This document shows positions 42,395-64,000 of a DNA stretch of 64,000 bases, piece by piece. Every line of letters starts with the position of its first letter. Within the stretch, counting starts at the first letter, position 1. Location: assembly GCA_035606435.1 (NCBI GenBank), contig DATNFM010000054.1, positions 3,413 through 67,412 on the forward strand, read 5' to 3'. The stretch comes from Streptosporangiaceae bacterium. Its GTDB lineage: Bacteria; Actinomycetota; Actinomycetes; Streptosporangiales; Streptosporangiaceae. A program made the position numbers and the translations under genes. Below the pieces are notes generated by a model. It did not search any database and had not been told where the DNA came from. It saw nothing but the letters and a program-made list of their open reading frames with translations.

Positions 42395-45289
42395 ATGACG
42401 GCCAACAGCGTCGAGTTCGGTGTTCTTGGACCAGTGCAGGCCCTGATCGTCGGCCGGTCGGCGGACTTAGGCGAGCGCAAACAGCGCCTGGTGCTGGCCA
42501 TGCTGGCGCTCGAGGTCAACAAGGTCATCCCGGTCAGCCGATTTGCCGACATCCTCTGGAGCGATTCACCGCCGAACAGCGCCCGCCGGATCATCCAGGC
42601 CCATGTCAGCAGGCTGCGGACGGCGCTGCACGAGGTCGGCGCGGCCGCCGACGGCACGGCGCTCGTCCGGCGCGGCTCTGGCTACCTGCTCGCCACCGAT
42701 CCGGTGAGCGTCGACGCGCACCGATTCCGCTTTTTAGTCGAAGACGCCGAACTTCGAACCGACGATCCTGGCAAGGTCAAGGTGCTGAGCGAGGCTCTGG
42801 CCTTGTGGCGCGGCCCGGCGCTCGCCGACGCGGCACCCGATGACCTGCGTCAGCAGCTGTGCGGCGGCCTCGAAGAGGCACGGCTCATGGCGGTGGAGAA
42901 CCTGCTGGAAACCAGGCTCCGGCTCGGTCATCACCTGCCGGTCCTCGACGAGCTGACCGATCTGGCCGCGCTGCATCCGTACCGGCCGAGGATCACGCGG
43001 TGCCTGATGCTGGCCTTGTACCGGGCCGGCCGGACGGCCGATGCCCTGCGCAGCTTCGAGGTCCTCCGCGACCGGCTGAGGCGAGAACTCGGGCTTGACC
43101 CGCCGGCCGAGCTGACCGAGCTGCACGTCGCCATTTTGCGGGCCGATCCCGGGCTGTCGCACGGCCAGGTGAACCTGGCCGATCCGGCCCCGGCTCAGCT
43201 CCCGGCCGATATCGCCGATTTCGTCGGCCGGGACACCGAACTGGCCGCGCTCGGCCGATTCACCGAAGCCCACCCGCTACACCCCCCGCCCGCCACCCAC
43301 ACCGCCCGGGCCAGCACCGTCATCATCACGGGCGGGGCCGGGGTCGGCAAGACCGCGCTCGCGGTGCACTGGGCTCACCTGGTAGCGGACGACTTTCCTG
43401 ACGGCCAGCTGTACGTCGACCTCCGGGGCTATTCAGGCACCGCCCCGGTCACGACGCTCGACGCACTGATCTCCTTGCTGCATGGCCTAGGCGTGCCGAT
43501 GGCACGGATTCCGGCCGATGAGAGGCAGGCGGCCGCACTGTACCGATCCGAGATGGCCGGCCGGCGAATGATCGTCGTGCTCGACAACGCCCGCAGCGAG
43601 CAGCCCGTCCGGCCGTTGCTGCCGGGCCGATCCAAGTCCGTGACGCTGGTGACCAGCCGGACCGGGCTGACCGGGCTGACCGCCCGGGAGGGCGCGGCCC
43701 GTATCTGCCTGGACCCGCTCAGCACCGACGAGGCGCTGGCTCTGCTGGCGGGCATGATCGGCGCGGTCCGGATCCGCCGCGAGACCGAGCCCGCCGCGGA
43801 ATTGGCCCGGCTGTGCGCCGGACTGCCGCTGGCGCTTCGCATCGCGGCGGCGAGGTTGCTGGCGCTTCCCCACACTCAGATCAAGGAGTACGTGAAGGAG
43901 ATCGCCGACGAGGACGCGTTCGCCTCGCTCCAGGTCGACGGTGACGATTCGGCTAGTGTCTGGACCGCGTTCGACCTTTCTTACCTGGCGCTTGACCCGT
44001 CGTCCAGGCGAGTGTTCCGGCTGCTCGGCGTGATCGGCAGCGGGAACCTGTCGGTGCACGCGATCGCGGCCATGAACGGGGCCACGGCCGCTCACGTCAG
44101 GCACGCGCTCAGCCGGCTGGCCGATGCCCACCTGGTCGAGCAGCATTCTGGCGCCCGGTTCGGCCCGCACGACCTGCTCCGGCGCTACGCGATGGTCAAG
44201 AGCAAGGACGAGGACACCACCCCGGATCGGCAGGCCGCCTTGCTGCGCCTGCTCCGCTGGTACCTGCACGGCGCGGACCAGGCGACCCGGCTCTTCAGTC
44301 CCTTCGCGCTGCGGCAGTTGCCGCCGGTCAGCCCCGCGGGCCAGAAGCTGGAGTTCGCGGGGATCGACGAGGCGCTGGCCTGGCTTGAAAGCGAGCAGGC
44401 CCACATGGTGGAGGCTCTCGTGCGGGCGGCCGACGAGGAGGATGACTCGATCTGCGATCTGGCCGTCCAGCTCGCCCGGCGGCTGCACTCGTTCCTGTTC
44501 AGGCGCGGCCACCTGGCCAGTGATGTCCAGGTCAGCCAGGCGGCCTTGAACGCCGCGGTACGCAGGCACGACCCGGGCGCCGAGGCCTGGGCCTGCATCT
44601 CACTCGGTGCGACCAACGCGCTGCTCGGGCGCGATGACCAGGCCCGGCCCTTGTTCCACCGGGCACTCAAGATCGCCAGGGCCACCACCGACACCTCCCT
44701 GCTGGCGAACTGCATCAGCAACGCGGCCGATGTCTGGTGGCGGGCCGGCGAGATTGACAAGGTCGAAGCGGCGCTGCGGGAAGAGATAGACCTGCGAGTC
44801 GATCTCGACGACGACTACGGCCTGGCGTTCTGCGAGCTCAACCTCGGCGAGCTGTATCGCGGTAAGGCGCTGTACGAGCAGTCTCGCAGCGCCTACGAAA
44901 GATCCATGCGCAAGCTGCGCGCCGTCGGCGACCGGTACGGCGAGTCGCTGGCCCTGCACGGCCTCGGCTGCCTGGAAATGCGGCAGGGACGGCTCGACCA
45001 GGCGGCCGACTCGCTTAACGGCGCGACGGTCATTCTCCGTGAGGTCAAGAACCGGTCCGCGCTCGGCTTCGTTCTGGTCGACCTCGGCCAGGCCTACCGG
45101 CGCCAAGGACAGAGCGGGCAGGCGATGAGCAGCCTTTACGAAGGACTGCGGCTGTGCCGGGAGCTTGGCATGCGCCGCCGGGAGGCCGAATGCCTGCAGG
45201 AGCTGAGCGTCACCCTTGATGAGATCATTCCTGAGCAGGCCGACAGTTACCGGCAGCAGTCGATGGCGATCCTGGGGGAACTGAAGTAA
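42395..45289 (+). CDS. SARP/AfsR-family regulator (OmpR-type wHTH + BTAD + NB-ARC + TPR)
   Basis: N-terminal FGVLGPVQA...RIIQAHVSRLRTAL; BTAD (ALALWRGPALAD); P-loop GGAGVGKTALA; C-terminal TPR-like repeats. Confidence 0.9.
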   Translation: MTANSVEFGVLGPVQALIVGRSADLGERKQRLVLAMLALEVNKVIPVSRFADILWSDSPPNSARRIIQAHVSRLRTALHEVGAAADGTALVRRGSGYLLATDPVSVDAHRFRFLVEDAELRTDDPGKVKVLSEALALWRGPALADAAPDDLRQQLCGGLEEARLMAVENLLETRLRLGHHLPVLDELTDLAALHPYRPRITRCLMLALYRAGRTADALRSFEVLRDRLRRELGLDPPAELTELHVAILRADPGLSHGQVNLADPAPAQLPADIADFVGRDTELAALGRFTEAHPLHPPPATHTARASTVIITGGAGVGKTALAVHWAHLVADDFPDGQLYVDLRGYSGTAPVTTLDALISLLHGLGVPMARIPADERQAAALYRSEMAGRRMIVVLDNARSEQPVRPLLPGRSKSVTLVTSRTGLTGLTAREGAARICLDPLSTDEALALLAGMIGAVRIRRETEPAAELARLCAGLPLALRIAAARLLALPHTQIKEYVKEIADEDAFASLQVDGDDSASVWTAFDLSYLALDPSSRRVFRLLGVIGSGNLSVHAIAAMNGATAAHVRHALSRLADAHLVEQHSGARFGPHDLLRRYAMVKSKDEDTTPDRQAALLRLLRWYLHGADQATRLFSPFALRQLPPVSPAGQKLEFAGIDEALAWLESEQAHMVEALVRAADEEDDSICDLAVQLARRLHSFLFRRGHLASDVQVSQAALNAAVRRHDPGAEAWACISLGATNALLGRDDQARPLFHRALKIARATTDTSLLANCISNAADVWWRAGEIDKVEAALREEIDLRVDLDDDYGLAFCELNLGELYRGKALYEQSRSAYERSMRKLRAVGDRYGESLALHGLGCLEMRQGRLDQAADSLNGATVILREVKNRSALGFVLVDLGQAYRRQGQSGQAMSSLYEGLRLCRELGMRRREAECLQELSVTLDEIIPEQADSYRQQSMAILGELK

Positions 45290-46589
45290 GCCGCCCGGCG
45301 ACATCGGCGACCGCCGCGACATCGGCGACCGCCGCGCCAGGCAGGTTGGCCGCTACCCAGCCCTCGCGGACGAGCGGCCTGGTCCGGGAACTGGCCAGAG
45401 CTCCGCTGGGCACATCGCTGGACAGCACAGTTCCGCCGGCGGTGTAGGCACCGTCGCCGACCGACATCGGGCCGATCATGATCGTGCCCGCCCCGATGAA
45501 GACGTGGTCGCCGATCTCGACCCTGTGCTTAGCCTGGCCGTCGAAGATGGCCGTGCCCGAGAGCCCCGCGATGTTGCAGCCCTTGCCGATGTCGGCGCTC
45601 ATCAGGCCGGCCACGTGCGGGATCTGGGTGTCGTCGCCGACGACCGAGTTGCTGACTTCGACGAACGACCCGGCCCTGGTCCTGGCGCCGAGCCGGGTGC
45701 CGGAGCGAAGCCAGGTGAAGGGCCCGATCCTGGCGTTGTCACCGATCGTCACGTCCTCGCAGACCGCGTACCTGACCACGCAATCGTCACCGGCCATCGT
45801 GTCGATCATCGTGGTGACCGGGCCGATGCTGGCGCCCGAGCCGATCACGGTACAGCCGGCCAGGTCGGTGTGCGGGCGGATCCGCGCTCCCCGGCCGATC
45901 TGGACGCTCGCATCGATTCTGGTCGTCGCCGGGTCCTCGATGACGACACCGCGACGCTGCCAGTCGACGGCGATGCGCTGGTACAGCGCCACCTCGGCCT
46001 GCTGTCGCTCGGCCAGGTCATCGACGCGCAGGGACTCGACCTGACCGGCGTCGATCGCGGTCACCCGCGCGCTGGGGTCACCCGCGCAGACCACGGCGGC
46101 GAGCGTGCACGCGGCCTGCCGCTGCGACCACCACCACTGCGGACCGCGCGAACGGATCACCGCTACGCCGAACTCACCGTCGTTCAGCGCCTCGATGGCC
46201 CGCCGGATGCTGGCCGGCTGCAGCAGCGGATTCAGGCACGACAGCGTCACCGTCAGCCCCGGCCACTGCGCGAGGCCGTCCCGGCCCGCCGAGATCGCCG
46301 GGCGCAGCCCGCGCCGGGCGCAGGCCCGGACGCTGACCGCCGCCGCTGCCCGTCCGCTGAAGCCGACCGCGTCGGGCCCGAGCTCGGCCACCGTGTCCAG
46401 CAGCCATTCCACCGCCGGCCGCCCGCACAGCGGAGCGCTCCAGCAGTCGCACGGCGGCGGGCAGATCCTGGCCGGCTCGTCGGTGGCCAGAACGACCGCG
46501 AGCCCCCCGCCTGGCCGGCCCGGGTGGTGGGCGGGGGGTGTAGCGGGTGGGACCCCCCGGAATCCCCCGTGGGCGCGGGCCTCAGGCAT
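45225..46589 (-). CDS. GlmU-like protein: intact hexapeptide-repeat acetyltransferase domain, degenerate N-terminal nucleotidyltransferase-like domain
   Basis: The C-terminal half is a classic LbH repeat (IGDNARIGPFTWLRSG...VGDDTQIPHV...IGDHVFIGAGT). The N-terminus lacks GxGTR. ATG 46589 overlaps the permease stop. Confidence 0.7.
   Translation of the reverse strand: MPEARAHGGFRGVPPATPPAHHPGRPGGGLAVVLATDEPARICPPPCDCWSAPLCGRPAVEWLLDTVAELGPDAVGFSGRAAAAVSVRACARRGLRPAISAGRDGLAQWPGLTVTLSCLNPLLQPASIRRAIEALNDGEFGVAVIRSRGPQWWWSQRQAACTLAAVVCAGDPSARVTAIDAGQVESLRVDDLAERQQAEVALYQRIAVDWQRRGVVIEDPATTRIDASVQIGRGARIRPHTDLAGCTVIGSGASIGPVTTMIDTMAGDDCVVRYAVCEDVTIGDNARIGPFTWLRSGTRLGARTRAGSFVEVSNSVVGDDTQIPHVAGLMSADIGKGCNIAGLSGTAIFDGQAKHRVEIGDHVFIGAGTIMIGPMSVGDGAYTAGGTVLSSDVPSGALASSRTRPLVREGWVAANLPGAAVADVAAVADVAGRLTSVPPGSPSTAAGNCRPAQE
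46526..46569. repeat. Variant-B G/C-run element (GGTGGGCGGGGGGTGTAGCGGGTGGGACCCCCCGGAATCCCCCG)
   Basis: Close match to 61018..61060; translated on the minus strand as the N-terminus of the GlmU-like ORF. Confidence 0.75.
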
Positions 46590-47682
46590 CGTCCCACCGG
46601 AACAACCGGATCGCGATGAGCGCGATCACCAGCGCGAACCCAAGCAGCACGCCCAGTTGCGGCAGCACCGTCACCGGTCCGTCGCCCCGGGCCAGGACAT
46701 CGAGCACGGCATCGTTGAGGTGGCGCAGCGGGAGCACCTGGGAGATCGACTGAACCCACGACGGCACATCGTTGATCGGAATGAACGCACCGGACAGGAA
46801 TGCCATCGGGATCACGATCAGGTTGGCCAGCGCGCTCGCGGCCTCGACAGACTTCGTCAGCGCCCCGGCCAGCAGCCCGATCGACAAGAACGCCAGAGTC
46901 CCGGCCAGCACCAGCGGAATCGCCATCCACCAGGCTCCGGAAAGCTTCAGGTGGAAGGCCAGCACGGCGACCACGACGAACAGCACCGTCTGGGCCAGCG
47001 CGATGCCCAGGCTGACCAGGATCCGCGCGCCGATGACGGACCGCACGCTGACCGGGCTGAGCGTCAGCCGGCGCATCAGCTTGCGCTGCCGCCAGACGAT
47101 CAGCGTCGAGGCGGCCGCGAACGTCGCCCCGGTCGCGATCGCCCAGCCGAGGATGCCGGGGGTCAGGTACTGGATCTCCTTGAGCGACTTGTCGTCCACC
47201 TGGCTCGTCGACAGCGCCACCCGGGGCGCTTGACCGGCAGTGCTGACCCGGGGGGACGACCCCCCGGAACCCCCCGCCGCGGCCAAGTTAGAGGCATCGA
47301 CCAGGTACTGGAACACGCTGCTTACCGCGCCGGCCGACGATGGCGACGCACCGGAGTCGTAGATGACGACGCCGGTGCCGCGCTGGACCACCGCCGCCGC
47401 CTCGTTGCCGTTGCGGACATCGGCCAGGGCCGCGTGCAGGTCATGGGACCTGGTGATCGCCAGGACCTGGTCCACCTTCGCCTTGCCGTGGGCCGGCAGG
47501 CCGTCATACACCGCGACCGGACCGACGAGCACCACGTTCGAGCGCGGGTTCTTGGCCCCGCCGAGCAGCCCGCCGAGCAGGAACAGGAAGATCAGCGGGA
47601 ACACGATCGTGAAGAACAGCGCCGCGCGATCACGCAGGTAGCCGCGCATCAGCGCCCCGGAGAGCGTCAGCAGGCTGGTCAC
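46582..47682 (-). CDS. ABC-2 type transporter permease
   Basis: 366 aa with a large extracytoplasmic loop and C-terminal TM bundle; start overlaps the ATPase stop by 4 nt. Confidence 0.8.
   Translation of the reverse strand: MTSLLTLSGALMRGYLRDRAALFFTIVFPLIFLFLLGGLLGGAKNPRSNVVLVGPVAVYDGLPAHGKAKVDQVLAITRSHDLHAALADVRNGNEAAAVVQRGTGVVIYDSGASPSSAGAVSSVFQYLVDASNLAAAGGSGGSSPRVSTAGQAPRVALSTSQVDDKSLKEIQYLTPGILGWAIATGATFAAASTLIVWRQRKLMRRLTLSPVSVRSVIGARILVSLGIALAQTVLFVVVAVLAFHLKLSGAWWMAIPLVLAGTLAFLSIGLLAGALTKSVEAASALANLIVIPMAFLSGAFIPINDVPSWVQSISQVLPLRHLNDAVLDVLARGDGPVTVLPQLGVLLGFALVIALIAIRLFRWDDA
47244..47276. repeat. G-run/C-run hairpin element TGACCCGGGGGGACGACCCCCCGGAACCCCCCG
   Basis: 33/33 identical to 54501..54533; in frame in the permease loop as GGSGGSSPR. 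Confidence 0.9.
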
Positions 47683-48581
47683 GAGCGGTACTCCCGTCCG
47701 GTCAGCGCGAGGAACGCGTCTTCCAGCGTGGCGCCGCGCATCGTGAGGTCACGCAGCGCGTGGTGATCGGCCAGTTCGGCCAGCACCGGTCCCGGGTCGG
47801 AGCTGGCGATGACGAGCTCGGTCTCGTCTTCGGTCACCACCGCGTCCGGGAATCGCTTGCGCAGCAGGTCGGGATCCAGCTGGCCGGCTCCCACGGTGAT
47901 CCGCGCCACGGCCTCGACCTTGCGGATCAGCTTCTCCGGGGTGTCGCACTCGACGATGCGGCCGTGGTCGATGATCGCGACGCGGTCGCAGAGGATCTCG
48001 GCCTCTTCGATGTAGTGCGTCGTCAGCACGACGGTCCGGCCGGCCGCGTTGGTCGCGCGGAGCAGATCCCACAGGTTGCGCCGGGCCTGCGGATCGAGGC
48101 CGGCGGTGGGCTCGTCCAGGAACAGAACCTCGGGATCGTGCACCAGCGCGCACGCGATCGACAGCCGCTGCGCCTCGCCGCCGGACAGCCGCTCGACCTG
48201 CGTGCCACCCCGGCTGGTCAGCCCGAACAGCTCGAGCAGCTCCTCGCCTCGCGCCACCGGCACCCGGTAGAGCTTGGCGAAGGCGCGCAACTGCTCGGCC
48301 GCGGTTAGCCGCTCGAAGAAGGCAGAGGTCTGCAGCTGCACCCCGATCCGGCTCGCCAGCTTTTGATTGCGCGGCCAGGACGGCAGGCCGAGCACCTTCG
48401 CCGAACCTGAATCCGGCTGGCGGAGCCCTTCGATCATCTCCAGCGTCGTGGTCTTCCCCGCGCCGTTGGGTCCCAGCAGCCCGAAGAACTCCCCCGCGCC
48501 GACGTCTAACGAGACCCCGTCGACCGCGACCAGCTCGCCGTAAGTCTTCCGGAGATCCTGGGCCACCACAGCGTTGGTCAT
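47679..48581 (-). CDS. ABC transporter ATP-binding protein
   Basis: Walker A GPNGAGKTT; signature LSGGEAQRL; Walker B VLFLDEPT. Confidence 0.9.
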   Translation of the reverse strand: MTNAVVAQDLRKTYGELVAVDGVSLDVGAGEFFGLLGPNGAGKTTTLEMIEGLRQPDSGSAKVLGLPSWPRNQKLASRIGVQLQTSAFFERLTAAEQLRAFAKLYRVPVARGEELLELFGLTSRGGTQVERLSGGEAQRLSIACALVHDPEVLFLDEPTAGLDPQARRNLWDLLRATNAAGRTVVLTTHYIEEAEILCDRVAIIDHGRIVECDTPEKLIRKVEAVARITVGAGQLDPDLLRKRFPDAVVTEDETELVIASSDPGPVLAELADHHALRDLTMRGATLEDAFLALTGREYRS

Positions 48582-49444
48582 CTGGCGTCCTCCTCGATCA
48601 TCGCGTCCACTCCGGCCGCCAGGCGCTCGCCGTAGATCGCCTTGTTGGCCCGCAGGTGGGTCGCTGTGTGGGTGCGTGGATGCTCGTAGTGAAGGCAGTT
48701 CAGCTGACGAGCCGAGGTACGGAACGCACGGATGACGCCGACCCGCTCGGCCAGCTTGGTAATGAGATCATCGTCTTCACAGCCCCAGCCGGAATAACGC
48801 GCGCAGTAACCGCCGACGGCATCAAAGGTTGCCCATCGCACCAAGATTCCACCCCAGTGGAAGGGGAAAGCTGGGCAGGGGCTCCCGTCCTCGTAGCGCC
48901 AGCCGAATCCCGGCGGTGGTTCGACCGCCAGCAGCTCGGGGCCGAGCCAGCTGAATTGCTCGCCGCCCACCGGCACCAGCCTTCCCTGGGCGTCGGCAAA
49001 GACGTGACATAGCCGGCCGCCGCCTGGCCGCTCGAACGGCTGGGTGGCGAACAACGCGTCAGACGGATTGACTAGCCGGTACATCCACGGCTGAACTACC
49101 GCCTGGTCACCAAGCAGCTTCAAGGCCTGGCCGGCGAAGTCGCGGCCTACCGGCGCCACATCGCCGTCGCTCAGGTACAGCACCGGCGCCTGGCAGGCGG
49201 CGGCCGCGATGTTGCGCAGCGGTCCAGGGGCTGTCAAAGCCCCGTCAGCCCACACGATCTTGATCCGGTCGTCGGTGAGCGGCGGAATCCTCGTGCCAGC
49301 GGCCACCCCGACCACGACCTCGCAGGGCACGTCCTGGGCGAGCCAGGCCCGGCACACGGCGGGCAGCGCCTGGATCGCCTGATGATCGCCGAACAGCGGC
49401 AGCACTACCGACAGCTCAACGGAGGGCGCCTTAACCACCGACAT
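48578..49444 (-). CDS. GT-A fold glycosyltransferase with a beta-1,4-galactosyltransferase-like C-terminal motif
   Basis: LSVVLPLFG N-terminus; DxD-like SDGDV; GWGCEDDDL motif. Start at Met 28 of ORF 48578..49525. Confidence 0.7.
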   Translation of the reverse strand: MSVVKAPSVELSVVLPLFGDHQAIQALPAVCRAWLAQDVPCEVVVGVAAGTRIPPLTDDRIKIVWADGALTAPGPLRNIAAAACQAPVLYLSDGDVAPVGRDFAGQALKLLGDQAVVQPWMYRLVNPSDALFATQPFERPGGGRLCHVFADAQGRLVPVGGEQFSWLGPELLAVEPPPGFGWRYEDGSPCPAFPFHWGGILVRWATFDAVGGYCARYSGWGCEDDDLITKLAERVGVIRAFRTSARQLNCLHYEHPRTHTATHLRANKAIYGERLAAGVDAMIEEDAR

Positions 49445-49564
49445 AAGGCCGAGCGTAGGTACGGATCGGCCGCAGTGGAATGGGCCGCTGGCGACCGCAG
49501 CATCACCACAACAAAAGCGCAGCAACGGCTAGTTACATTGCGATCCGAGGAGCTTGTGCTGGCA

Positions 49565-56747: not shown

Positions 56748-58024
56748 AACTCCTGGTGCTAGCTCCAAGCCGGCGTTCGCGCGGGGATGCGATCATCGCC
56801 GCCGACCTGGCTCGATCGCTGCCGAGGTCGCGGTTTCAGGTCGCGTTCGCGGCGGCGCCTGAAGTCCTGTCCCAACTGCACGACCTGGGAATGCCGACGC
56901 TGCCGCTGACCGGCGCCACCCCGGCCGACAACCTAGCGATCCTGGATCAGATCGTCGCCGGCTTCAAGCCGGACTGCCTGGTCGCCGCCGACGCGTTCGA
57001 GCTGGAGCACACCACGAAGTGGTCGGGCCTGGCGATGGGCATGCTGCGCGAGCGCTACGGCCGGCCGGTCGCGAGCCTGGACCGGCTGGGCTGGCAGGCG
57101 GCCGGCTACAAGGCCGACATCTACGGCGGCGGCGCTGGCCAACTCAGTGAGCTGACCTTCCCGCCGCTGCTGGATGACTGCGACGTGCTGATCAGGCCGT
57201 GCCCGCCGCACCGGGCCGAGCCGGGTCCGGCTGGCGTTGTGGTGGCGCCGCTCGGGCTGTCCGGGCTGCGCGATGGAGGGCGAACGTCGGAGTCCGCCCG
57301 GGCGGACCATGCCTCTGGCAAGGAGGCGGAGACCACTCTGCCGCTGCTAGGGGGACGACCCCCTAGGACCCCCGACCAACCCGTAGTGTTTCTTTCCAAC
57401 TCAGCGTGGGAGTACCGCAACCGGACTCGGTCTCTGGCCGTGGCTGAGCTGATCGATGCGTTGCCGCGATTGATCCACAGTCATCTCGCCGCGCTGGGCC
57501 GGCGGCTGCGGGTGGTGCACGTCGGGGCGCGGCAGTGGCGGTTCCCGCTCGCCGACCAGATCGACTACCGGCACTTCAGCAAGCTGCCATACCAGATGTT
57601 CCACGAGAAGCTGGCGGCGGCGGACCTGTTCGTGACGACGAACGTGCTGTCGGTCACGCTCGCGCAAGCGGTGCTGTCCGGCGTCCCGGCGCTCGTCCTG
57701 GAGAACCACCAGACGCTCGGGGCATCCGAGTTGCCCGGCTGGGTTGGCGCGGCGGCCCCGCTGCTGCGTTCCGCGTATCCGTTCCGGGTCGCGCCGCTGG
57801 GCTGGCACGACTTCCTGGAGCCACTGCTGGCCGGGAACCCGTACGCCGACTGTTTCGCGAGCGCCGGGATCCTGGATCGGCAGGCGGTGCTCAGTGCGGT
57901 GAATGGGCTGCTGGACGACGAACCGGGTCGATCGCAGCTTAAGGAGCGTCAGCAGGGTTTCCGCGACGCGCTGGCCGGGCTCCCTCCGGTCGGCGAGGCC
58001 CTGGCGGCGGCGGTGCCTCGATGA
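56744..58024 (+). CDS. Divergent GT-B-like protein, paralog B
   Basis: MKLLVLAPS...GDAIIAADLARSLP N-terminus; C-terminal LFVTTNVLSVTLAQAVLSGVPALVL in place of the GT1 HGG..T donor motif. Confidence 0.7.
   Translation: MKLLVLAPSRRSRGDAIIAADLARSLPRSRFQVAFAAAPEVLSQLHDLGMPTLPLTGATPADNLAILDQIVAGFKPDCLVAADAFELEHTTKWSGLAMGMLRERYGRPVASLDRLGWQAAGYKADIYGGGAGQLSELTFPPLLDDCDVLIRPCPPHRAEPGPAGVVVAPLGLSGLRDGGRTSESARADHASGKEAETTLPLLGGRPPRTPDQPVVFLSNSAWEYRNRTRSLAVAELIDALPRLIHSHLAALGRRLRVVHVGARQWRFPLADQIDYRHFSKLPYQMFHEKLAAADLFVTTNVLSVTLAQAVLSGVPALVLENHQTLGASELPGWVGAAAPLLRSAYPFRVAPLGWHDFLEPLLAGNPYADCFASAGILDRQAVLSAVNGLLDDEPGRSQLKERQQGFRDALAGLPPVGEALAAAVPR
57350..57374. repeat. Short-form hairpin element GGGGGACGACCCCCTAGGACCCCCG (extended stem CTAGGGGG-ACGA-CCCCCTAG)
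   Basis: In frame as LGGRPPRTP in the interdomain region of paralog B. Confidence 0.8.
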
Positions 58025-59367
58025 CGGCCGTAAGCGAGGCGACTCGACCGCTGGCCGGCCGGCGCCGGATCGACCCGTCGACCGGGCGGGTGTTCTCCGC
58101 GAGCATGCGCAACGACTTCCTGACCCCGCGCGGTACCCCATACAAGTGGCAGGAACTGACGGCCAGCGTCGAGCGGACGGTGATCGGCGGCGGGGGGCCG
58201 ACCGTGGTGCCGGTGCGGTATGAATGGCAACGGGTGGACGCCCAGGTCGGCAATCCGGACGGGGCGCAGACGCGCCGGGAGTGGACGTTCGCCCGGGGGC
58301 AGAGCTTCACCTCGCTGCTGCTGCACACCGAACTGGACGGCGCCCTCGCGCCCATGCCGGACTTCGACGGGCCGACCTGCACCACGATGGACATCTCCTA
58401 TCCGGGGCTGCCGAAGTCGCCCGCGGTCGACTTGCTGCTGATGCTGAGCTGGGACGTCGTCACGTTCGAGATGATGGCGACGAACCTGATCACCACGCCG
58501 GAGCTACGCGAGGTGGGCGGCTGCACCAACCTGGAGCGGATCTCGGGAACCTGGGCCGAGCTCCGGTTCTCCGATCCCAGGTCGACCGCGGTCTTCAGGA
58601 ACGCGCGGGGGACGGCGCGGCACCTGGGGTACGGGCACGCCGACGGCCGGCCGACCCGGATCTACACCTCGACGTGCTTGGACTGCCAGCTGGATGTTCG
58701 GTCCGGGCCGCTGGCTGAGCGGGGCCGTTCGTCGTACTGGCTGACGCTGCAGGTCGACGCCGAGAGCGCGGACCTGCTGTCGGCCGAGATGACCGAGATG
58801 ATCGTCGCCACGCTGACCGGTCCTGAAGCGAAAGCAGTTCCGGTCTGCAAGCGCCGGACCGTGCGGCTGTGGGCCGGGCTGGAGCCGAGCGGACTCGATC
58901 CGGCCGAGCCTTCCGCCTCCGGGACGGTCGCGGTCCAGCGGCACGACCCAGAGGTGCTCGCCGAGGCGATTAGGTTCGCCGGGCAGGTCGCCCAGTATCT
59001 GGCCTGGCAGGTCTCGTCGCTGGAGAACCTGCCGCAAGGGATGTCCGAGCTGGCCTTGATGGGATTCCGCAGCCTGGTGGGGGCGGACCTGGCCAGTACG
59101 TTTCTGCGGGTCAAGTCGCTGCAGACCGATCTGGAGGCGGCCGCTCGATCCTCTTCCGGGCAGGCCGCCCTGGCGCAGGCGCTGCCCGAGCACCGTCGGC
59201 GCCTTGAGGGGCTGCTCGCCTTCGGGCAGCTGGCGGCCGACGGGACCAACCGAGGCCTGGTTCTCGAAGAAGCCGACCGCAGGGCGACGCGCGCCCGCCT
59301 GCAGTCGGTCAGCAACGACCTCATCGCCCTGCTCGGGCTAGTCGAAAAACTGGAGCAACCACAATGA
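58021..59367 (+). CDS. Hypothetical protein (448 aa), no recognisable motif
   Basis: ATGA overlaps at both ends inside the operon; coding-like composition. Confidence 0.7.
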   Translation: MTAVSEATRPLAGRRRIDPSTGRVFSASMRNDFLTPRGTPYKWQELTASVERTVIGGGGPTVVPVRYEWQRVDAQVGNPDGAQTRREWTFARGQSFTSLLLHTELDGALAPMPDFDGPTCTTMDISYPGLPKSPAVDLLLMLSWDVVTFEMMATNLITTPELREVGGCTNLERISGTWAELRFSDPRSTAVFRNARGTARHLGYGHADGRPTRIYTSTCLDCQLDVRSGPLAERGRSSYWLTLQVDAESADLLSAEMTEMIVATLTGPEAKAVPVCKRRTVRLWAGLEPSGLDPAEPSASGTVAVQRHDPEVLAEAIRFAGQVAQYLAWQVSSLENLPQGMSELALMGFRSLVGADLASTFLRVKSLQTDLEAAARSSSGQAALAQALPEHRRRLEGLLAFGQLAADGTNRGLVLEEADRRATRARLQSVSNDLIALLGLVEKLEQPQ

Positions 59368-60323: not shown

Positions 60324-60326
60324 GTC

Positions 60327-61079
60327 GTGCGGCTTATTACGCCGGCCGATGATGAGCTGTACGGACTGGCCAGCGCGGCGGGGAAGCTAGGCCGGGCCGA
60401 TCGGCTGCTGGCCATGCTCGAACGGGAACACCTGGCGCGGCCGGGCGATGGCGAAGCGGCCGGGCGGTACGCGCTGGCGATGATGGCGGTGCTGCCTAGC
60501 GTCAACTTCGAACTGGCCGCGCACGCACCGTTCACCGCCGCGATCGACGCGTGGGGGCGGGTCCTCGCCATCGAGCCTGATCACTGGTTCGCCCGGTACG
60601 GCCGGGCCCGGCTGCAGACGTTGACCCCGGGCGGCTACGGCCTCGATTCCGCTGGTGCGGCCGATGAGCTCGCGTCGGCGCGGGCGGATCTGGATTTCCT
60701 GATCGACCTGCAGTCCGGGCTCGGGTACCAGCCGTACTTCGTCAGCACCCATGCGCTGGCGACGGTGCTGGACGGGCTTTGCGTGGAGTCGGCCCGGGTC
60801 GGCCGGCCTTCGCTGGCCGATGAGCTGGCGGCGTGCCCTCGGGTCAATGTGCGCCTGCCCGCTCTGGGCGCGGTGCTGTGCGAGCCGCTGGTCACCTTGT
60901 ACGCGGGGTCGGCCGAACGGGAACGGCACGCGATCGGCGAGGTTGCCGCCGCGTTGTACGGGGACCAGGCCGCCGTCGCCGCGCTGCGTCGCTCCCTGCT
61001 TCAGTGCTGGCCCGGGAGGTGGGCGGGGGGTGAAGCGGGCGGGACCCCCCTGATCCCCCCGCAGCCGGCGCGGCGGTGA
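60327..61079 (+). CDS. Hypothetical protein, paralog of 54643..55320
   Basis: 250 aa, GTG start 3 nt after the rSAM stop; the C-terminal tail is encoded by the variant-B element. Confidence 0.7.
   Translation: MRLITPADDELYGLASAAGKLGRADRLLAMLEREHLARPGDGEAAGRYALAMMAVLPSVNFELAAHAPFTAAIDAWGRVLAIEPDHWFARYGRARLQTLTPGGYGLDSAGAADELASARADLDFLIDLQSGLGYQPYFVSTHALATVLDGLCVESARVGRPSLADELAACPRVNVRLPALGAVLCEPLVTLYAGSAERERHAIGEVAAALYGDQAAVAALRRSLLQCWPGRWAGGEAGGTPLIPPQPARR
61018..61060. repeat. Variant-B G/C-run element (GGTGGGCGGGGGGTGAAGCGGGCGGGACCCCCCTGATCCCCCC)
   Basis: Matches 46526..46569; encodes WAGGEAGGTPLIPP. Confidence 0.75.
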
Positions 61080-61091
61080 GGCGATGAGGCG

Positions 61092-62351
61092 GTGAGTATC
61101 CGGCGGGTGCTTTTTCTCGGGCTTGGCCACCTGTCCAACGGCGATATCAGCATCGCGGCCGACTTCGCGCGCCAGCTGCCTTCTGACCGCTTCGAGGTCG
61201 CGTTCGTCACGTCCGCTACCGCTGCGGCGTTCGTCCGGGCGACCGGCCTCGTCGTTCATCCCCTGGTGAGCCGCGACCCCGAGCGCAACCTGGACACCTT
61301 CGACCGGCTGGTGGCCGACTTCCGGCCCGACCTGTTCGTCGCGGCCGACGCCTACACGCTCTATTACTCCACCGCCTGGTCGGGCCTGTCCGTTCCGCTG
61401 CTGCGCGAGCGCTATGGCATCGCGCTCGCGAGCTTCGATCAGTACGACTACCTGGCCGCGGACTACGCCGTCGACTTCTACGGTGGCCACCGGACCCGGT
61501 TCCCGCGGCTGCTGGACGAGTGCGACCTGCTGATCCGCAACAGCCCGCTGAACCGTCCGGCGCCCAGCGACCCGGGAGTGATCGTGACTCGGATGGGCTG
61601 TGCCGGCGGCTCGTCGTCGCTACCGGTCTCGCGGCCGCACCGCGACCGGCCGACGGTCTTCCTCACGAACTCCCGCTGGGAGTCCGTGAACGTGGTGCAC
61701 TCGCCGGCCATGGGCCAGCTGATGGCCGCCATGCCGCGAATCCTGCACAGCCACCTGGCCGCCCTGCAACGCCCGCTTCGCGTGGTCCACATCGGGCCGG
61801 AACGGTGGGACTTCCCGGTCGCCCCGCAGCTCGACTACCGGTACGCGACGGGACTGCCGCCGGACGAGTTCCACGCGCAGCTGACCGGAGCCGACCTGTA
61901 CATCACCGGCAACGCCGTGTCGGTCACGCTGACGCAGGCGGTGCTCGCCGGGGTGCCGTGCCTGTTGCTCGACAACCACAAGATGCTCGACCTGTCTCGT
62001 CTGGCCAGGAACGGGTCCATCCCGGCCTGGCTGACCGAAGCCGCGCCCCAGCTGACCATCGCCTACCCGTTCCGGGTGTTCCCGTGGGGCTGGCACGACT
62101 TCCTGACGCCGGTGCTATCGGACAACCCGTACCTGGACTGCTTCCTGGCCGCCGGGGTGTTCGAGCGCCGCCGCGTGCTGGCCGCCATGACCCAGCTGCT
62201 CGACGATGCGACGGTGCGGGACCAGCTGGCCGAACGGCAAGCCGTCCTGCTCAAGCGCCTAGACGAGCTCCCGCCGGCCGGCGATGCGCTGGAGTCGGCT
62301 GAGTTCGCCCGCCCGGTTCGGGGCAGCCGCATTACTGAGGGAGCGTCATGA
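61092..62351 (+). CDS. Divergent GT-B-like protein, paralog C
   Basis: VLFLGLGHLSNGDISIAADFARQLP N-terminus; DLYITGNAVSVTLTQAVLAGVPCLLL C-terminal motif. Confidence 0.7.
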   Translation: MSIRRVLFLGLGHLSNGDISIAADFARQLPSDRFEVAFVTSATAAAFVRATGLVVHPLVSRDPERNLDTFDRLVADFRPDLFVAADAYTLYYSTAWSGLSVPLLRERYGIALASFDQYDYLAADYAVDFYGGHRTRFPRLLDECDLLIRNSPLNRPAPSDPGVIVTRMGCAGGSSSLPVSRPHRDRPTVFLTNSRWESVNVVHSPAMGQLMAAMPRILHSHLAALQRPLRVVHIGPERWDFPVAPQLDYRYATGLPPDEFHAQLTGADLYITGNAVSVTLTQAVLAGVPCLLLDNHKMLDLSRLARNGSIPAWLTEAAPQLTIAYPFRVFPWGWHDFLTPVLSDNPYLDCFLAAGVFERRRVLAAMTQLLDDATVRDQLAERQAVLLKRLDELPPAGDALESAEFARPVRGSRITEGAS

Positions 62352-63580
62352 CCGAACTGTGCTGCCCGCAGGGGGCCGATCCCCTGGAACCGTCGCTTCC
62401 TGTGATGCCGTTCGAGCAGGCGCATCCGCTGCAGCCGGCCCCGGTGCTGCGGGCGCTGGCCGAACGCGGCCCGATCCACCGGGTACGGACGCTGGTGGGC
62501 GACGAGGCGTGGCTGGTCACCGGATACGCGCAGATCCGATCGCTCTACAGCGGAGAATTGCTCGGCCGCTCGCACCCCAGGCCCGAGTGCGCGGCCCGGC
62601 TGACCGCCTCGGCGCTGTTCGGCGGGCGACCTCAGGAGAACTACGCCAGCGAGGACTCGGACCGGGCCTGGTTCAGGGACGTGCTGCACACCGTCATGTC
62701 GCCGGCGCCGCTGCGCGAGCTGCGCCCGTGGGTCGACGGGCTCGTCACCTCGCTGCTCGACGACCTCGCGGCCGCTCCGAGGCCGGCCGACCTGGTCGAC
62801 CTGGTGGCCGTGCCGCTGCCGACCTTGGTGATCTGCAAGCTGCTCGGGTTGCCTACCAGCTACGTGACGCGGTGCCGGGAACTAGCCGAGGCGATCGCCT
62901 GTCCCGACGACGAGCAGAAGTCCAAGGCCGGCCTGACCGAAATGACGGACCTACTGCGGCAGGTCGCGACCAGCGGCGAAGCCGAGCCAGGCGGGCTGAT
63001 CGCCAGGCTGCGTTCGAGTCCGTACCGGCTGCGCGCGCCGATCGTCGCGCACATCTGCTCGTCGCTGATGTTCACCGGTCATCACACCACGGTCGTGGCG
63101 ATCGGGTACGCGGCGCTGCTGTTGCTGCTGCATCCTGACCAGCATCAGGTCGTGCTGGCCGACCCCGGCCGGCTGCCCGACCTGATCGAGGAGAGCCTGC
63201 GGATCGGCAACGTGGGCGTCAATACCGGCGGCGGCAACGGCATCCCCACCTACGCCCGCACGGACATCCAGATCGGCGATGTGTGCGTTAAGGCCGGCGA
63301 TCTGGTCCTGCTGGATACCGGCGCCGGCAACCACGACGAGCAGGTCTTCGGCGACGCCTACCAGTTCGACATCGACCGGCCCGCCAATCCGCATCTGACC
63401 TTCGGTTACGGACGGCACTACTGCCCCGGCGCGGGCCTGGCCCGGATGGAACTGCAGGCTTTGCTTACCCAGCTCGTCCCCCGGTTCCCGACGATGCGGC
63501 TCGCCGCCGACCTCGCTGACCTGCGAGCCCACGACGATCAGATCACCGGCGGGCTGGTCGCGTTGCCGGTCACCTGGTGA
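62348..63580 (+). CDS. Cytochrome P450
   Basis: Heme-binding loop FGYGRHYCPGAGLA; ExxR (EESLR); I-helix FTGHHTT; ATGA overlap with the upstream gene. Confidence 0.9.
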   Translation: MTELCCPQGADPLEPSLPVMPFEQAHPLQPAPVLRALAERGPIHRVRTLVGDEAWLVTGYAQIRSLYSGELLGRSHPRPECAARLTASALFGGRPQENYASEDSDRAWFRDVLHTVMSPAPLRELRPWVDGLVTSLLDDLAAAPRPADLVDLVAVPLPTLVICKLLGLPTSYVTRCRELAEAIACPDDEQKSKAGLTEMTDLLRQVATSGEAEPGGLIARLRSSPYRLRAPIVAHICSSLMFTGHHTTVVAIGYAALLLLLHPDQHQVVLADPGRLPDLIEESLRIGNVGVNTGGGNGIPTYARTDIQIGDVCVKAGDLVLLDTGAGNHDEQVFGDAYQFDIDRPANPHLTFGYGRHYCPGAGLARMELQALLTQLVPRFPTMRLAADLADLRAHDDQITGGLVALPVTW

Positions 63581-63584
63581 TGCC

Positions 63585-64000
63585 GTGACGACCCTCGGGC
63601 CGGCCAGAGTCAGCCGGACCGCGCTCGGAGTCGCGATGGTCCGGGCGATGGAAAGCCGCCGTCGCGACCGGCTCTTCTGCGACCCGTACGCCGCCGCGTT
63701 CCTCGCCGCCGCGCCCGAGGTCTTCGATCGAGCCGAACGGGGCGCGGTGGCCTGCCTGTCCGGCCTGTCAGCCGCGGGCACCGCGTTCTGGTCTCGGGCC
63801 GTGATCCGCACCCGGTTCTTCGACGACTACCTGGTCGACGCCGTCGGTGCGGGCATACGTCAGGTCGTGCTGCTCGCGGCCGGGCTGGACACCAGGGCGT
63901 TCCGGCTGAACTGGCCGGCCGACGTGCGGCTGTTCGAGCTGGACCTGCCCGAGGTGCTCGAATTCAAGCGGCAGGTACTGGCGTCGCGATCGGCCAGGCC
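63585..64000 (+). CDS. SAM-dependent (carboxyl/O-) methyltransferase of the TIGR00027/LCM-like family, 3'-truncated by the window end
   Basis: Manual translation from GTG 63585: TTLGPARVSRTALGVAMVRAMESRRRDRLFCDPYAAAFL...VVLLAAGLDTRAFRL. Absent from the ORF track because no stop lies in the window. Confidence 0.7.
   Translation, partial: MTTLGPARVSRTALGVAMVRAMESRRRDRLFCDPYAAAFLAAAPEVFDRAERGAVACLSGLSAAGTAFWSRAVIRTRFFDDYLVDAVGAGIRQVVLLAAGLDTRAFRLNWPADVRLFELDLPEVLEFKRQVLASRSAR

Follow-up and report, generated by a model that had tools for sequence, protein, structure and literature searches.

The window (the whole 64,000-nt stretch of Streptosporangiaceae DNA that was analysed) carries a genuine, tightly packed gene set that is conserved over four bacterial phyla. 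On balance we read it as a SARP-activated cluster for an uncharacterised RiPP family, whose product would probably be a glycosylated, radical SAM (rSAM)-modified peptide, and which most likely employs three uncharacterised protein families. The sequence-only reading had proposed an undescribed biosynthetic locus in which a small peptide gene is accompanied by rSAM enzymes and glycosyltransferase-like proteins, next to a SARP regulator and a divergent operon for sugar and export functions, and this proposal survived every test run. Full-text literature searches found no paper on this rSAM/DUF6365 system, in agreement with its description of the locus as a candidate undescribed one.

Gene content and operon structure

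Every open reading frame in the earlier list was present where it had been placed, with a GC3 of 0.83-0.91 in each (0.88 in the 105-aa peptide gene), and the families assigned to them were borne out by Pfam/NCBIfam profile searches. The features are as follows.

42395..45289, plus: large SARP-family regulator of AfsR-like architecture (Trans_reg_C, BTAD, NB-ARC/AAA and TPR)
45225..46589, minus: hexapeptide (left-handed beta-helix) acetyltransferase (Hexapep 3e-16)
46582..47682, minus: ABC-2 type transporter permease (ABC2_membrane_3 4.8e-36)
47679..48581, minus: ABC transporter ATPase (ABC_tran 1.3e-28)
48578..49444, minus: GT-A-type glycosyltransferase-like protein (Glyco_transf_7C 3.3e-7, 30 bits versus cutoff 23)
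49496..49539, plus: SARP-box-like promoter element, three heptamers and a -10-like hexamer, directed at the plus-strand operon
49617..50417, plus: sugar-1-phosphate nucleotidylyltransferase-like enzyme of RmlA/GalU-type fold (NTP_transferase 3.3e-12, full length)
50414..51520, plus: GT1-family (macrolide/EryCIII-like) glycosyltransferase (EryCIII-like_C 1.3e-18, UDPGT 3e-13)
51517..53253, plus: class-B-like (B12-binding) rSAM enzyme (Radical_SAM 6.7e-15; CX3CX2C at residues 293-300)
53282..53599, plus: precursor peptide, 105 aa, NHLP-clan (Os1348-family) leader domain at about residues 15-74
53609..54646, plus: rSAM-1, HxsC/HxsC4-like rSAM enzyme (CX3CX2C at residues 12-19; C-terminal CX2CX5C)
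54643..55320, plus: H1, 225 aa, unnamed family (weak TPR-like profile matches)
55317..56747, plus: DUF6365 protein A, GT-B fold (PF19892 4.9e-73)
56744..58024, plus: DUF6365 protein B, paralog of the C type (PF19892 1.5e-52; 25% identical to A)
58021..59367, plus: orphan protein, 448 aa, N-terminal domain of about 290 aa and C-terminal helical bundle of about 140 aa
59364..60323, plus: rSAM-2, HxsC-like rSAM enzyme (65% identical to rSAM-1)
60327..61079, plus: H2, paralog of H1 (33% identical)
61092..62351, plus: DUF6365 protein C, GT-B fold by homology to A (PF19892 3.3e-59)
62348..63580, plus: cytochrome P450, accessory tailoring (p450 2.8e-19)
63636..64000, plus: SAM-dependent methyltransferase (TIGR00027/LCM type), truncated by the window; the full gene encodes 264 aa and is the operon's last

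Eight junctions of the plus-strand operon are translationally coupled by 4-nt ATGA/GTGA start/stop overlaps, located exactly as had been described (50414, 51517, 54643, 55317, 56744, 58021, 59364 and 62348), and the remaining junctions are gaps of 28, 9, 3, 12 and 55 nt. The last of these separates the P450 and methyltransferase genes and exceeds the 28 nt originally given as the maximum; similarly, the operon had been counted as 15 genes but comprises 14, the number that the earlier list itself names. The operon does run through the window edge as proposed, but it stops about 430 nt beyond, after the methyltransferase gene, which on an identical metagenome contig (L001) encodes 264 aa and is followed by a minus-strand gene.

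This combination of genes is far beyond chance and recurs in 34 independent loci from Actinomycetota, Clostridia, Anaerolineae and Blastocatellia. Such loci are rare and patchily distributed, with 35 matches among 185,579 species genomes. The precursor, the HxsC-like rSAM and DUF6365 are found together in nearly every one of the 34 loci. When neighbourhood conservation was compared, as the sequence-only reading had suggested, the peptide and rSAM genes proved to be retained in syntenic loci: the precursor is encoded in 33/34, with a weak leader-like match in the last, and the HxsC-like rSAM in 34/34. The B12-type rSAM (29/34) and the NTP-transferase (27/34, Clostridia and Blastocatellia included) are also widespread, while the GT1 is restricted to actinomycete and Anaerolineae loci and the P450 to 8 actinomycete loci. 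The NTP-transferase is nearest to RmlA-type enzymes (rmlA_long) but far under cutoff (TIGR01208, 56.8 versus 320 bits), and the top NCBIfam match of the P450, pentalenolactone synthase (289 bits), is likewise under cutoff; the methyltransferase scores over cutoff against TIGR00027 (237.9 bits).

Regulation and export

SARPs are typical controllers of secondary metabolism, and one adjoins 9 of the related actinomycete loci. The regulator in the window matches Pfam BTAD (4.7e-35), Trans_reg_C, NB-ARC and TPR, and scores 430 bits against the NCBIfam AfsR model, which is under the model cutoff. The promoter element consists of the heptamers CGCAGCA, CACAACA and CGCAGCA at an exact 11-nt spacing (49496-49524) with a -10-like TACATT downstream (49534-49539). 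It occurs once in the window, and just 2/100 shuffles contained any match. The element is kept in register in 11 further actinomycete loci (alignment A5), making 12 in all, and in every locus where it was found the NTP-transferase gene begins 50-98 nt downstream. The divergent GT-A gene probably starts at ATG 49444, because a longer ORF from TTG 49525 would overrun this conserved element.

Within the divergent operon, the ABC ATPase is found in 29/34 related loci and the permease, by phmmer matches with this query, in 13/34; Clostridial loci have an ABC-2 permease too, but a more divergent one. The GT-A-type protein, a weak family match, occurs in 10 actinomycete loci only. The description of the acetyltransferase as GlmU-like holds for the C-terminal acetyltransferase half (residues 178-430), while no other part matches GlmU models, and among the related loci it is conserved in L003 and L004 only, the nearest two.

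The precursor peptide

The 105-aa peptide contains 27 Asp/Glu, no Cys and no His, and ends in a 20-aa acidic tail. It scores over the cutoff of NCBIfam NF038399 (48.1 versus 40 bits), and an identical protein at NCBI carries the name 'Os1348 family NHLP clan protein', so the earlier statement that the locus has no hallmark of a known RiPP class must be corrected. Membership of the Os1348/NHLP family relates the locus, via its leader, to proteusin-type and pos/pfl-type RiPPs. In the Pseudomonas pos/pfl system (Os1348 = PosA), the same leader family has been found experimentally to be a RiPP leader (PMC7726476, PMC12636437).

Alignment of 34 precursors gave the invariant motif ...LTPENLEE[YF]F..D.A[VI]YTP[DE], of which A[VI]YTP lies 16-30 residues before an acidic C-terminus. 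Pfam/NCBIfam searches and the precursor alignment revealed no double-glycine site, protease or PqqD-type RRE in the cluster. In most RiPP precursors it is the core that varies. Here, by contrast, conservation peaks in the putative modified segment, and the real core could instead be the acidic tail. In the Blastocatellia, a trio of NTP-transferase, DUF6365 and HxsC-like rSAM stands beside a PapB-like rSAM/SPASM protein (252 bits) and a YydG-like rSAM; the protein encoded ahead of the trio has a leader-like domain but ends differently, in ...CYYFG. This variant fits the way in which RiPP families keep a leader while exchanging the core.

Radical SAM enzymes and uncharacterised families

Nearly all of the top dozen NCBIfam matches of the B12-type enzyme are B12-binding rSAMs, including ApyD, PhpK, TIGR03975, HpnJ, BzaD and BchE, each far under cutoff, and its Pfam B12-binding domain is sub-threshold (21 bits). 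The best named relatives of rSAM-1 are HxsC4 (142.8 bits over the full length, cutoff 500) and HxsC (107.6 bits, cutoff 267.9), and its C-terminal CX2CX5C probably binds an auxiliary cluster. Its nearest PDB sequences are BlsE (1.4e-15), whose substrate is a nucleoside sugar, and PqqE (3.7e-15), whose substrate is a peptide; this equal proximity of the small rSAMs to both counts against a firm peptide-substrate reading. rSAM-2 is the copy nearest to the single rSAM of simpler loci.

The proteins described earlier as 'GT-B-like' A, B and C all belong to Pfam DUF6365, which is encoded in 34/34 loci, with two or more copies in 32. Two-copy loci always have one A-type and one C-type protein, and the third copy, B, occurs only in full actinomycete loci and L018. 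The AlphaFold model of A (AF2, pLDDT 80.7) matches GT-B glycosyltransferases only (the top 50 Foldseek hits versus PDB are all GT-B, E ~1e-10, probability 1.0), and we accept the GT-B fold on the strength of this model. The first ~40 residues of A are a low-confidence extension, homologs being mostly ~415-420 aa. No sequence similarity to known GT families was detected, and hhalign against the cluster's own GT1 gave E 0.17. The modelled fold, together with the co-conservation of an enzyme that would form an NDP-sugar, suggests that the DUF6365 proteins may be active glycosyltransferases acting on the peptide.

H1 returned nothing in Pfam or NCBIfam searches, while the H family profile (32/34 loci) found weak TPR matches in the PDB, best to YrrB (4e-4) and also to Ski3, MamA and the OGT TPR. 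The orphan protein, present in 30/34 loci, has no Pfam, NCBIfam or PDB sequence match, and its family is very small, with 50 representatives among 1.84 billion. Its N-terminal domain is predicted to form a large beta-sheet wrapped round a long helix (AF2 pLDDT 84.4) with weak fold matches to LmcA and lipovitellin/ApoB-type sheets (TM 0.2-0.4), and the C-terminal helical bundle is confined to actinomycetes. In three Clostridia (L025, L031 and L036) a single polypeptide combines the orphan domain with a C-type DUF6365.

Proposed pathway

In the proposed pathway, the folded Os1348-type NHLP leader (about residues 15-74) would dock the tailoring enzymes and be followed by the ...F.(A/V)D.A(V/I)YTP(D/E) segment and the acidic tail; the modified residues and any site of leader removal are putative. 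The HxsC-like rSAMs, with H proteins as putative peptide-holding adaptors, and the B12-type rSAM would perform C-H chemistry on the peptide or an attached sugar, with cross-linking, epimerisation and/or C-methylation as candidates. The nucleotidyltransferase would provide an NDP-sugar. The A-type and C-type DUF6365 proteins, as a divergent GT-B family whose C-type member would partner the orphan beta-sheet domain, may act together with the orphan to transfer this sugar to the peptide, with the conserved Tyr/Thr as the most plausible acceptor. In actinomycetes, the GT1, GT-A, acetyltransferase, P450 and methyltransferase could extend and decorate the product before the ABC-2 transporter exports it.

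Alternative explanations

A doubtful alternative is that the product is a peptide-derived small molecule, comparable to PQQ or mycofactocin, for which only a few residues of the AVYTPD segment would be cross-linked or oxidised by the rSAMs, excised and glycosylated to give a conserved compound serving as redox cofactor, metallophore or signal. In its favour, four phyla share an almost unchanged candidate core, as is typical of cofactor precursors (PqqA, MftA) but not of antibiotic RiPPs; the two small rSAMs are as near PqqE and MftC-type enzymes as anything else, mycofactocin is likewise glycosylated, and the leader contains no cleavage motif. However, the MftC and PqqE models score far under cutoff (68 versus 265 and 71 versus 381), the conserved motif is internal here but C-terminal in MftA, and genes for a peptidase, a flavoenzyme or a dependent oxidoreductase are missing from the co-conserved set; the SARP and dedicated exporter of the actinomycete loci, with the rare, patchy distribution, point to a specialised secreted metabolite. 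It is also unlikely that the locus makes a RiPP with DUF6365 proteins that are not glycosyltransferases but GT-B-fold scaffolds, peptide-binding partners of the rSAMs or non-sugar transferases, leaving any glycosylation to the actinomycete GT1 and GT-A. Such a role would fit the lack of a sequence-level match to any GT family, the (S/T)-x-N-x-x-S that replaces the classic GT1 H-G-G-x-G-T loop in the alignment as read, the constant position of DUF6365 genes next to an HxsC-like rSAM and the constant A/C pairing, which may parallel known active/inactive GT-B pairs. Against it, the nucleotidylyltransferase is co-conserved even in minimal Blastocatellia loci without another GT, and D321, N327, G340, P342 and other residues are invariant in three paralogs and four phyla and, going by the fold match, would map to the GT-B nucleotide-binding region.

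The sequence-only reading had itself offered a cell-envelope glycoconjugate pathway. In a fuller version of this alternative, which also takes in an unusual-sugar pathway, the rSAMs would remodel a nucleotide sugar, the GT-Bs would build a lipid or wall glycan and the small protein would serve as chaperone or regulator and not as substrate. The nucleotidyltransferase, four or five GT-like proteins, acetyltransferase and ABC-2 (wall-polymer-type) exporter would suit this, as would the weak likeness of the orphan domain to the lipid-binding sheets of LmcA and lipovitellin and the proximity of rSAM-1 to sugar-modifying BlsE as much as to peptide maturases. It is nonetheless highly improbable given the strict co-conservation (33-34/34 loci) of a precursor whose family is experimentally a RiPP leader, and the Blastocatellia variant, with its trio alongside PapB-like and YydG-like peptide maturases, weakens it further; moreover, the conserved set has no polyprenyl-phosphate transferase, flippase or polymerase genes, and SARPs are typically tied to secondary metabolism. 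A fortuitous juxtaposition of unrelated functions is for practical purposes refuted by the eight 4-nt overlaps, synteny over 34 loci in four phyla and the fusion of two components in one gene.

Comparison with known systems

The preferred reading, a glycosylated and rSAM-modified RiPP, can be set against several characterised systems. The named enzymes that score best for rSAM-1 and rSAM-2 (HxsC/HxsC4) come from the Hxs system, but the locus lacks an HxsA-type His-Xaa-Ser repeat peptide, HxsB and HxsD. Like the mycofactocin and PQQ pathways, the locus combines a small precursor, with an invariant and here putatively modified motif, and an rSAM of the same broad branch, and mycofactocin is later glycosylated; in contrast, this locus has no PqqD/MftB RRE, peptidase or flavoenzyme, its motif is not C-terminal, its distribution is rare and its rSAMs score far under the family cutoffs.

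In glycosylated RiPPs (glycocins such as sublancin/SunS, cacaoidin and NAI-112), cluster-encoded glycosyltransferases add sugars to ribosomal peptides, and cacaoidin-type actinomycete clusters combine several GTs with P450 and methyltransferase tailoring. Glycocins use GT2 (GT-A) SunS-type enzymes on Cys/Ser/Thr of disulfide-stapled hairpins, while cacaoidin and NAI-112 are lanthipeptide-based; to our knowledge, none of these has a DUF6365 protein, an NHLP leader or an HxsC-like rSAM.

Proteusins (polytheonamides, landornamide, aeronamides) have an NHLP-type structured leader, a long precursor and rSAM tailoring, including B12-dependent enzymes, as here. The locus differs in its acidic, Cys-free core and in its additional components, namely three GT-B-like proteins, a nucleotidyltransferase and members of two unnamed families; a PoyD-type epimerase is missing from the window, and there is neither a GG cleavage site nor a C39-peptidase exporter. 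Of the characterised systems, Pseudomonas pos/pfl comes closest; it shares the NF038399 leader with its folded helical domain and, like this locus, does without a double-glycine site and an in-cluster protease. The core sequences differ, and the pos/pfl enzymes are an alpha-KG HEXXH hydroxylase/cleavage enzyme, an MNIO-nitroreductase fusion and a GNAT, whereas here they are rSAM, DUF6365 and H/orphan proteins; the leader family is the sole part that the two have in common.

Organisation and borders of the locus

Every ORF that a sequence-only reading of the window had named was recovered at the coordinates assigned to it. The eight 4-nt start/stop overlaps reported there (50414, 51517, 54643, 55317, 56744, 58021, 59364 and 62348) are exact, and the operon stands as a packed unit, of 14 genes rather than the 15 first counted; the junctions without overlap have gaps of 28, 9, 3, 12 and 55 nt, so that the proposed ceiling of 28 nt holds for all except the final one. 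Pfam and NCBIfam scans upheld almost all of the family guesses, the label GlmU-like only in part. GC content in the window is 64-72%, and GC3 lies between 0.83 and 0.91 in every ORF, the gene for the 105-aa acidic peptide included.

Features of the locus (coordinates, strand, description; families from Pfam and NCBIfam scans)
42395-45289 (+): large SARP regulator with BTAD, winged-helix, NB-ARC and TPR domains
45225-49444 (-): GT-A-type protein (weak support), ABC ATPase, ABC-2 permease, and a hexapeptide acetyltransferase that resembles GlmU over its C-terminal half only
49617 to beyond the window edge (+): operon encoding, in order, an RmlA-like nucleotidyltransferase, one GT1, a B12-type radical SAM enzyme (rSAM), the precursor, rSAM-1, H1, DUF6365-A, DUF6365-B, a 448-aa orphan protein, rSAM-2, H2, DUF6365-C, one P450 and a methyltransferase (TIGR00027, 264 aa)
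53282-53599 (+): gene of the precursor, the 105-aa acidic peptide

On an identical metagenome contig (L001) the 264-aa methyltransferase is the last operon gene, ~430 nt past the window edge, and is followed by a minus-strand gene. At the other end, the S8 subtilase with ricin lectin, TetR, DrrA-like ABC, NYN and PMT genes upstream were considered as cluster members and rejected, since none is kept beside related loci, which places the left border at the SARP gene. The secreted-type S8 subtilase, with two ricin-B lectin domains (36512-39208, +), lies 3 kb upstream of the SARP gene, and the PMT-family protein O-mannosyltransferase (31245-32810, -) 10 kb upstream; both are probably unrelated to the cluster because they are not conserved beside related loci, and a sugar-binding protease close to a protease-less glyco-RiPP cluster is worth keeping in mind. 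An Rfam scan of the whole window returned no riboswitch and no other RNA family.

Conservation across related loci

A DUF6365 profile scan of one genome per species returned 35 loci, among them 13 syntenic actinomycete loci and many from Clostridia. Actinomycete carriers include Streptosporangiaceae, Catellatospora, Dactylosporangium, Micromonospora, Solwaraspora, Longispora, Streptomyces echiniscabiei, Rhizohabitans and Virgisporangium, and further loci occur in one Anaerolineae MAG, one Dermatophilaceae MAG and two Blastocatellia MAGs. Cultured carriers include Catellatospora bangladeshensis (NBRC 107357), Micromonospora sonchi, S. echiniscabiei (WI04-05B) and, from the Clostridia, Ruminiclostridium papyrosolvens and Lachnoclostridium phytofermentans. 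The closest relative of the window locus, from a Streptosporangiaceae MAG (L003; 80-95% protein identity), has two tandem P450 genes (L003:16753-19263) where the window has one.

Gene occurrence in 34 independent loci (HMM-based census)
HxsC-like rSAM: 34/34
DUF6365: 34/34; at least two copies in 32; where two, always one A-type and one C-type
Precursor: 33/34; weak match in the remaining one
H family: 32/34
Orphan: 30/34
B12-type rSAM: 29/34
ABC ATPase: 29/34
Nucleotidyltransferase: 27/34
GT1: 14/34; actinomycete and Anaerolineae only
GT-A: 10/34; actinomycete accessory
SARP: 9/34; actinomycete accessory
P450: 8/34; actinomycete accessory
Methyltransferase: 8/34; actinomycete accessory

The sequence-only reading had named loss of the peptide or rSAM genes from syntenic loci as the sign of a fortuitous grouping. 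No such loss occurs (precursor 33-34/34, HxsC-like rSAM 34/34), and the gene association is therefore not fortuitous. A precursor with a recognisable leader (NF038399), co-conserved with tailoring enzymes in 33-34 of the 34 loci, is also what characterises a RiPP system.

Clostridial loci carry three added rSAM/SPASM enzymes and a YydG-like rSAM, the latter confined to Clostridial and Blastocatellia variants, suggesting that the same invariant core undergoes more extensive radical chemistry there. In the L. phytofermentans locus (L022:5529-20222) and similar ones, the extra rSAM/SPASM enzymes are closest to tungsten-cofactor-oxidoreductase maturase models, three H-family proteins are present, and GT1, GT-A, P450 and methyltransferase are lacking. 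A minimal variant occurs in the Blastocatellia MAGs (L033:8249-14448 and L034:543-3248), where a nucleotidyltransferase, one DUF6365 and an HxsC-like rSAM stand alongside a PapB-like rSAM/SPASM (252 bits) and a YydG-like rSAM. In front of this trio lies a 170-aa precursor-like protein that combines a twin-arginine (TAT) signal with a leader-like domain and ends differently, in ...CYYFG, a pattern that reads, from sequence, as leader kept and core swapped. The trio may behave as a portable peptide-tailoring module. Tyr is the residue class shared by the ...CYYFG and AVYTP-type cores.

A putative SARP-dependent promoter

Three heptamers, CGCAGCA, CACAACA and CGCAGCA, are spaced at exactly 11 nt in the divergent intergenic region (49496-49524), with TACATT after them (49534-49539), a combination unique in the window. 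The triple-heptamer element recurs in register in 11 other actinomycete loci (12 with the window), always 50-98 nt ahead of the nucleotidyltransferase gene, including loci in which this gene is inverted. Heptamer direct repeats with 11-nt spacing beside a -10 box are the textbook architecture of a SARP box, and the element thus ties the adjacent SARP, as its putative activator, to the plus-strand operon. Given its position, ATG 49444 is also a likelier start of the GT-A gene than TTG 49525. A sigma-70 consensus scan of the promoter region found no match, as expected for an activator-dependent promoter. In two actinomycete loci that are rearranged (L010:20095-20203 and L014:20061-20089) the triple heptamer is found again at another site, which suggests a second SARP-dependent promoter there.

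A 21-nt tandem repeat in perfect register, ACTCAGTG(TT/CC)AGCTAATC(G/A)AG x2 (49565-49606), stops 10 nt short of the GTG start codon of the operon's first gene, and none of 100 shuffles gave two matches. It was rejected as a regulator site, being conserved in no related locus.

The precursor peptide

Over residues 17-74 the precursor scores 48.1 bits (cutoff 40) with NCBIfam NF038399, "Os1348 family NHLP clan protein", and NCBI gives the same name to an identical protein; a 100% identical peptide is on record from a Streptosporangiaceae metagenome-assembled genome. The earlier statement that the locus bears no hallmark of a known RiPP class thus fails on the peptide itself. Pfam Frankia_peptide reached 28 bits (cutoff 48), and a single-sequence search of the PDB matched nitrile hydratase alpha and the 85-aa chain 6lk7 at no better than E ~0.5. 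The latter is deposited under the title 'nitrile hydratase, alpha chain' and is probably the Os1348 crystal structure.

The 34 precursors are 95-142 aa long, essentially Cys-free and mostly without GG, and share an invariant ...LTPENLEE[YF]F..D.A[VI]YTP[DE] located 16-30 residues short of a C-terminus in which Asp/Glu make up 35-60%. In the precursor alignment a double-glycine site is absent from the window precursor and from 31 of 33 relatives, and the window precursor has no His. Its tail contains 'DARM' at residues 87-90, recalling the C-terminal ARMD of pos/pfl, the trigger of oxidative cleavage in that pathway. 'ARM' was rejected as a cleavage motif of the pos/pfl type because the locus lacks a HEXXH enzyme and relatives differ in the motif, and the likeness, as judged from these sequences, is probably coincidence.

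Predicted tailoring enzymes

The two small rSAMs, rSAM-1 and rSAM-2, are 65% identical and align over their full length to the HxsC4 and HxsC models, far below cutoff (142.8 versus 500 and 107.6 versus 267.9); they are equally close to BlsE and PqqE, for which structures are solved. The PoyD-type epimerase model TIGR04517 is not among the matches listed for either enzyme, the best being HxsC4/HxsC. The B12-type rSAM matches PF04055 (56 bits), has its CX3CX2C motif as CPYSCAFC at residues 293-300, and shows a sub-threshold cobalamin domain (PF02310, 21 bits, cutoff 32.1). Its best dozen NCBIfam matches are nearly all B12-binding rSAM families, and a search of PDB sequences gave no match.

The three proteins first described as GT-B-like belong to Pfam DUF6365 (PF19892; E 5e-73 to 1.5e-52), and that description agrees with the AlphaFold model of DUF6365-A, which finds only GT-B glycosyltransferases in the PDB. 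For this AF2 model (pLDDT 80.7, pTM 0.80), every one of the top 50 Foldseek matches is a GT-B enzyme (E down to 9e-11, probability 1.0, TM 0.4-0.6), including PimB', CalG1/3, GtfA/D, SpnG/P and MurG, so that DUF6365 is predicted to adopt a two-Rossmann-domain GT-B fold. An hhalign comparison of DUF6365 with the cluster's own GT1 was not significant (E 0.17). DUF6365-A begins with a ~40-residue Gly/Ser/Ala/Pro-rich extension (window 55317-55440; pLDDT below 50) that most homologs, at about 415-420 aa, do not have. We take the ATGA-overlap start as probably genuine, since the only in-frame alternative before the conserved domain is TTG 55365, the next, TTG 55491, lying inside it.

H1 and H2 are paralogs (33% identity) that match no Pfam or NCBIfam family, and the H profile gave weak TPR-type matches only in the PDB. 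The orphan has no Pfam or NCBIfam match and no PDB sequence match, whether searched singly or as a profile. Its model (pLDDT 84) shows a large curved beta-sheet around a long helix and a helical C-terminal bundle, with matches at low TM only, to lipid-binding sheets (LmcA, lipovitellin) and to porins, from which we assign no function. The family has 50 representatives, all unnamed, among 1.84 billion cluster representatives. In three Clostridial genomes a single 725-727-aa ORF joins a C-type DUF6365 (residues about 3-416) to the orphan domain (about 424-717):

L025:13979-16153: DUF6365-orphan fusion ORF
L031:13993-16173: DUF6365-orphan fusion ORF
L036:13994-16174: DUF6365-orphan fusion ORF

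As Rosetta-stone evidence, this fusion suggests that the C-type DUF6365 and the orphan domain work together physically. A 725-aa protein in the representative library likewise carries the orphan domain, at residues 440-707.

Proposed pathway and alternatives

The reading we favour, with somewhat better than even confidence, is that of a RiPP cluster activated by the SARP and belonging to an uncharacterised family, for which the chemistry, the residues modified and the removal of the leader are what we infer. The NHLP-type leader would dock the HxsC-like rSAM enzymes, the H proteins being proposed as adaptors, and the B12-type rSAM would likewise act on the substrate. The DUF6365 A/C glycosyltransferase pair would act with the orphan domain on an NDP-sugar made in situ, yielding a peptide with radical modifications and sugars, probably placed around the invariant Tyr-Thr-Pro; the actinomycete accessory enzymes would add further decoration before the ABC-2 transporter carries the product out.

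Several other readings deserve weighing. The invariant motif could instead be the source of an excised small molecule resembling PQQ or mycofactocin, which we consider unlikely: rSAM scores are 68 for MftC (cutoff 265) and 71 for PqqE (cutoff 381), and, in contrast to those systems, with their PqqD-type RRE and C-terminal Val-Tyr or Glu...Tyr, no gene scanned matches PqqD and the precursor C-terminus is acidic. That the DUF6365 proteins are partners of the rSAMs that transfer no sugar is distinctly improbable, for the nucleotidyltransferase is co-conserved even where no other glycosyltransferase is present, which is the chief, though indirect, reason to think that a nucleotide sugar is used by DUF6365. 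A pathway to a cell-envelope glycan in which the small protein is a bystander is very improbable in view of a precursor co-conserved with the enzymes, and chance juxtaposition is negligible.

A bolder and quite tentative extension of the RiPP reading is that nucleotidyltransferase, GT-B-type DUF6365 and HxsC-like rSAM form a portable, previously unrecognised RiPP tailoring module, which would equip a Tyr/Thr of the leader-bound peptide with either a radical-remodelled sugar or a sugar-peptide linkage forged by radical chemistry. If true, this would define a new RiPP class in Actinomycetota, Clostridia, Chloroflexota and Acidobacteriota and give a function to three orphan families, namely DUF6365, the H adaptor with its weak TPR-like matches, and the beta-sheet orphan domain. 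Sugar-plus-radical chemistry, if real, would be a new mode of peptide glycosylation and give Pfam DUF6365 a function.

New enzyme families drive RiPP discovery, and this locus offers a GT-B-fold DUF family, always as an A/C pair, an HxsC-like rSAM branch, a B12-type rSAM and two nameless families, all tied to an invariant-motif precursor from soil actinomycetes to gut and cellulolytic Clostridia. It is a concrete, testable and experimentally tractable lead with several orphan families, and a SARP with an identifiable putative site provides a handle for switching the cluster on.

Comparison with known systems

Full-text searches of the openly available literature found no match to a characterised cluster, no account of this system and no mention of DUF6365, PF19892 or the core motif, the Os1348 papers alone being relevant. 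Os1348 is the 85-aa precursor of an antibiotic-related cluster of Pseudomonas sp. Os17, with a reported crystal structure (PMC7726476). Work from 2025 established this cluster (pos/pfl) as a RiPP pathway in which the leader is of the NHLP type, a GG site is lacking and the cluster encodes no protease; its tailoring enzymes are a HEXXH alpha-KG enzyme, an MNIO-nitroreductase fusion and a GNAT (PMC12636437). The window precursor shares this leader family (NF038399), but Pfam and NCBIfam scans of 19 genes found none of these tailoring domains. Proteusins likewise share the NHLP-type leader (NF038399 above cutoff), whereas their GG site, C39 exporter and PoyD were not found at the window locus, whose transporter is of the ABC-2 type without a C39 domain. 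Unlike the Hxs system, the locus has rSAMs below the HxsC/HxsC4 cutoffs and no HxsA His-Xaa-Ser repeat peptide, the precursor being His-free. Glycocins combine a SunS-type GT2 with a Cys-containing helix-loop-helix core, whereas the precursor here is Cys-free and the GT-A-like gene, present in 10 actinomycete loci only, lies outside the conserved core. Judged by these sequence comparisons, the locus appears by its leader to be a relative of pos/pfl and the proteusins, and by its enzyme set to match none of them. It probably represents an uncharacterised RiPP family with new tailoring enzyme families, and thus still a RiPP cluster, not a biological system of a new kind.
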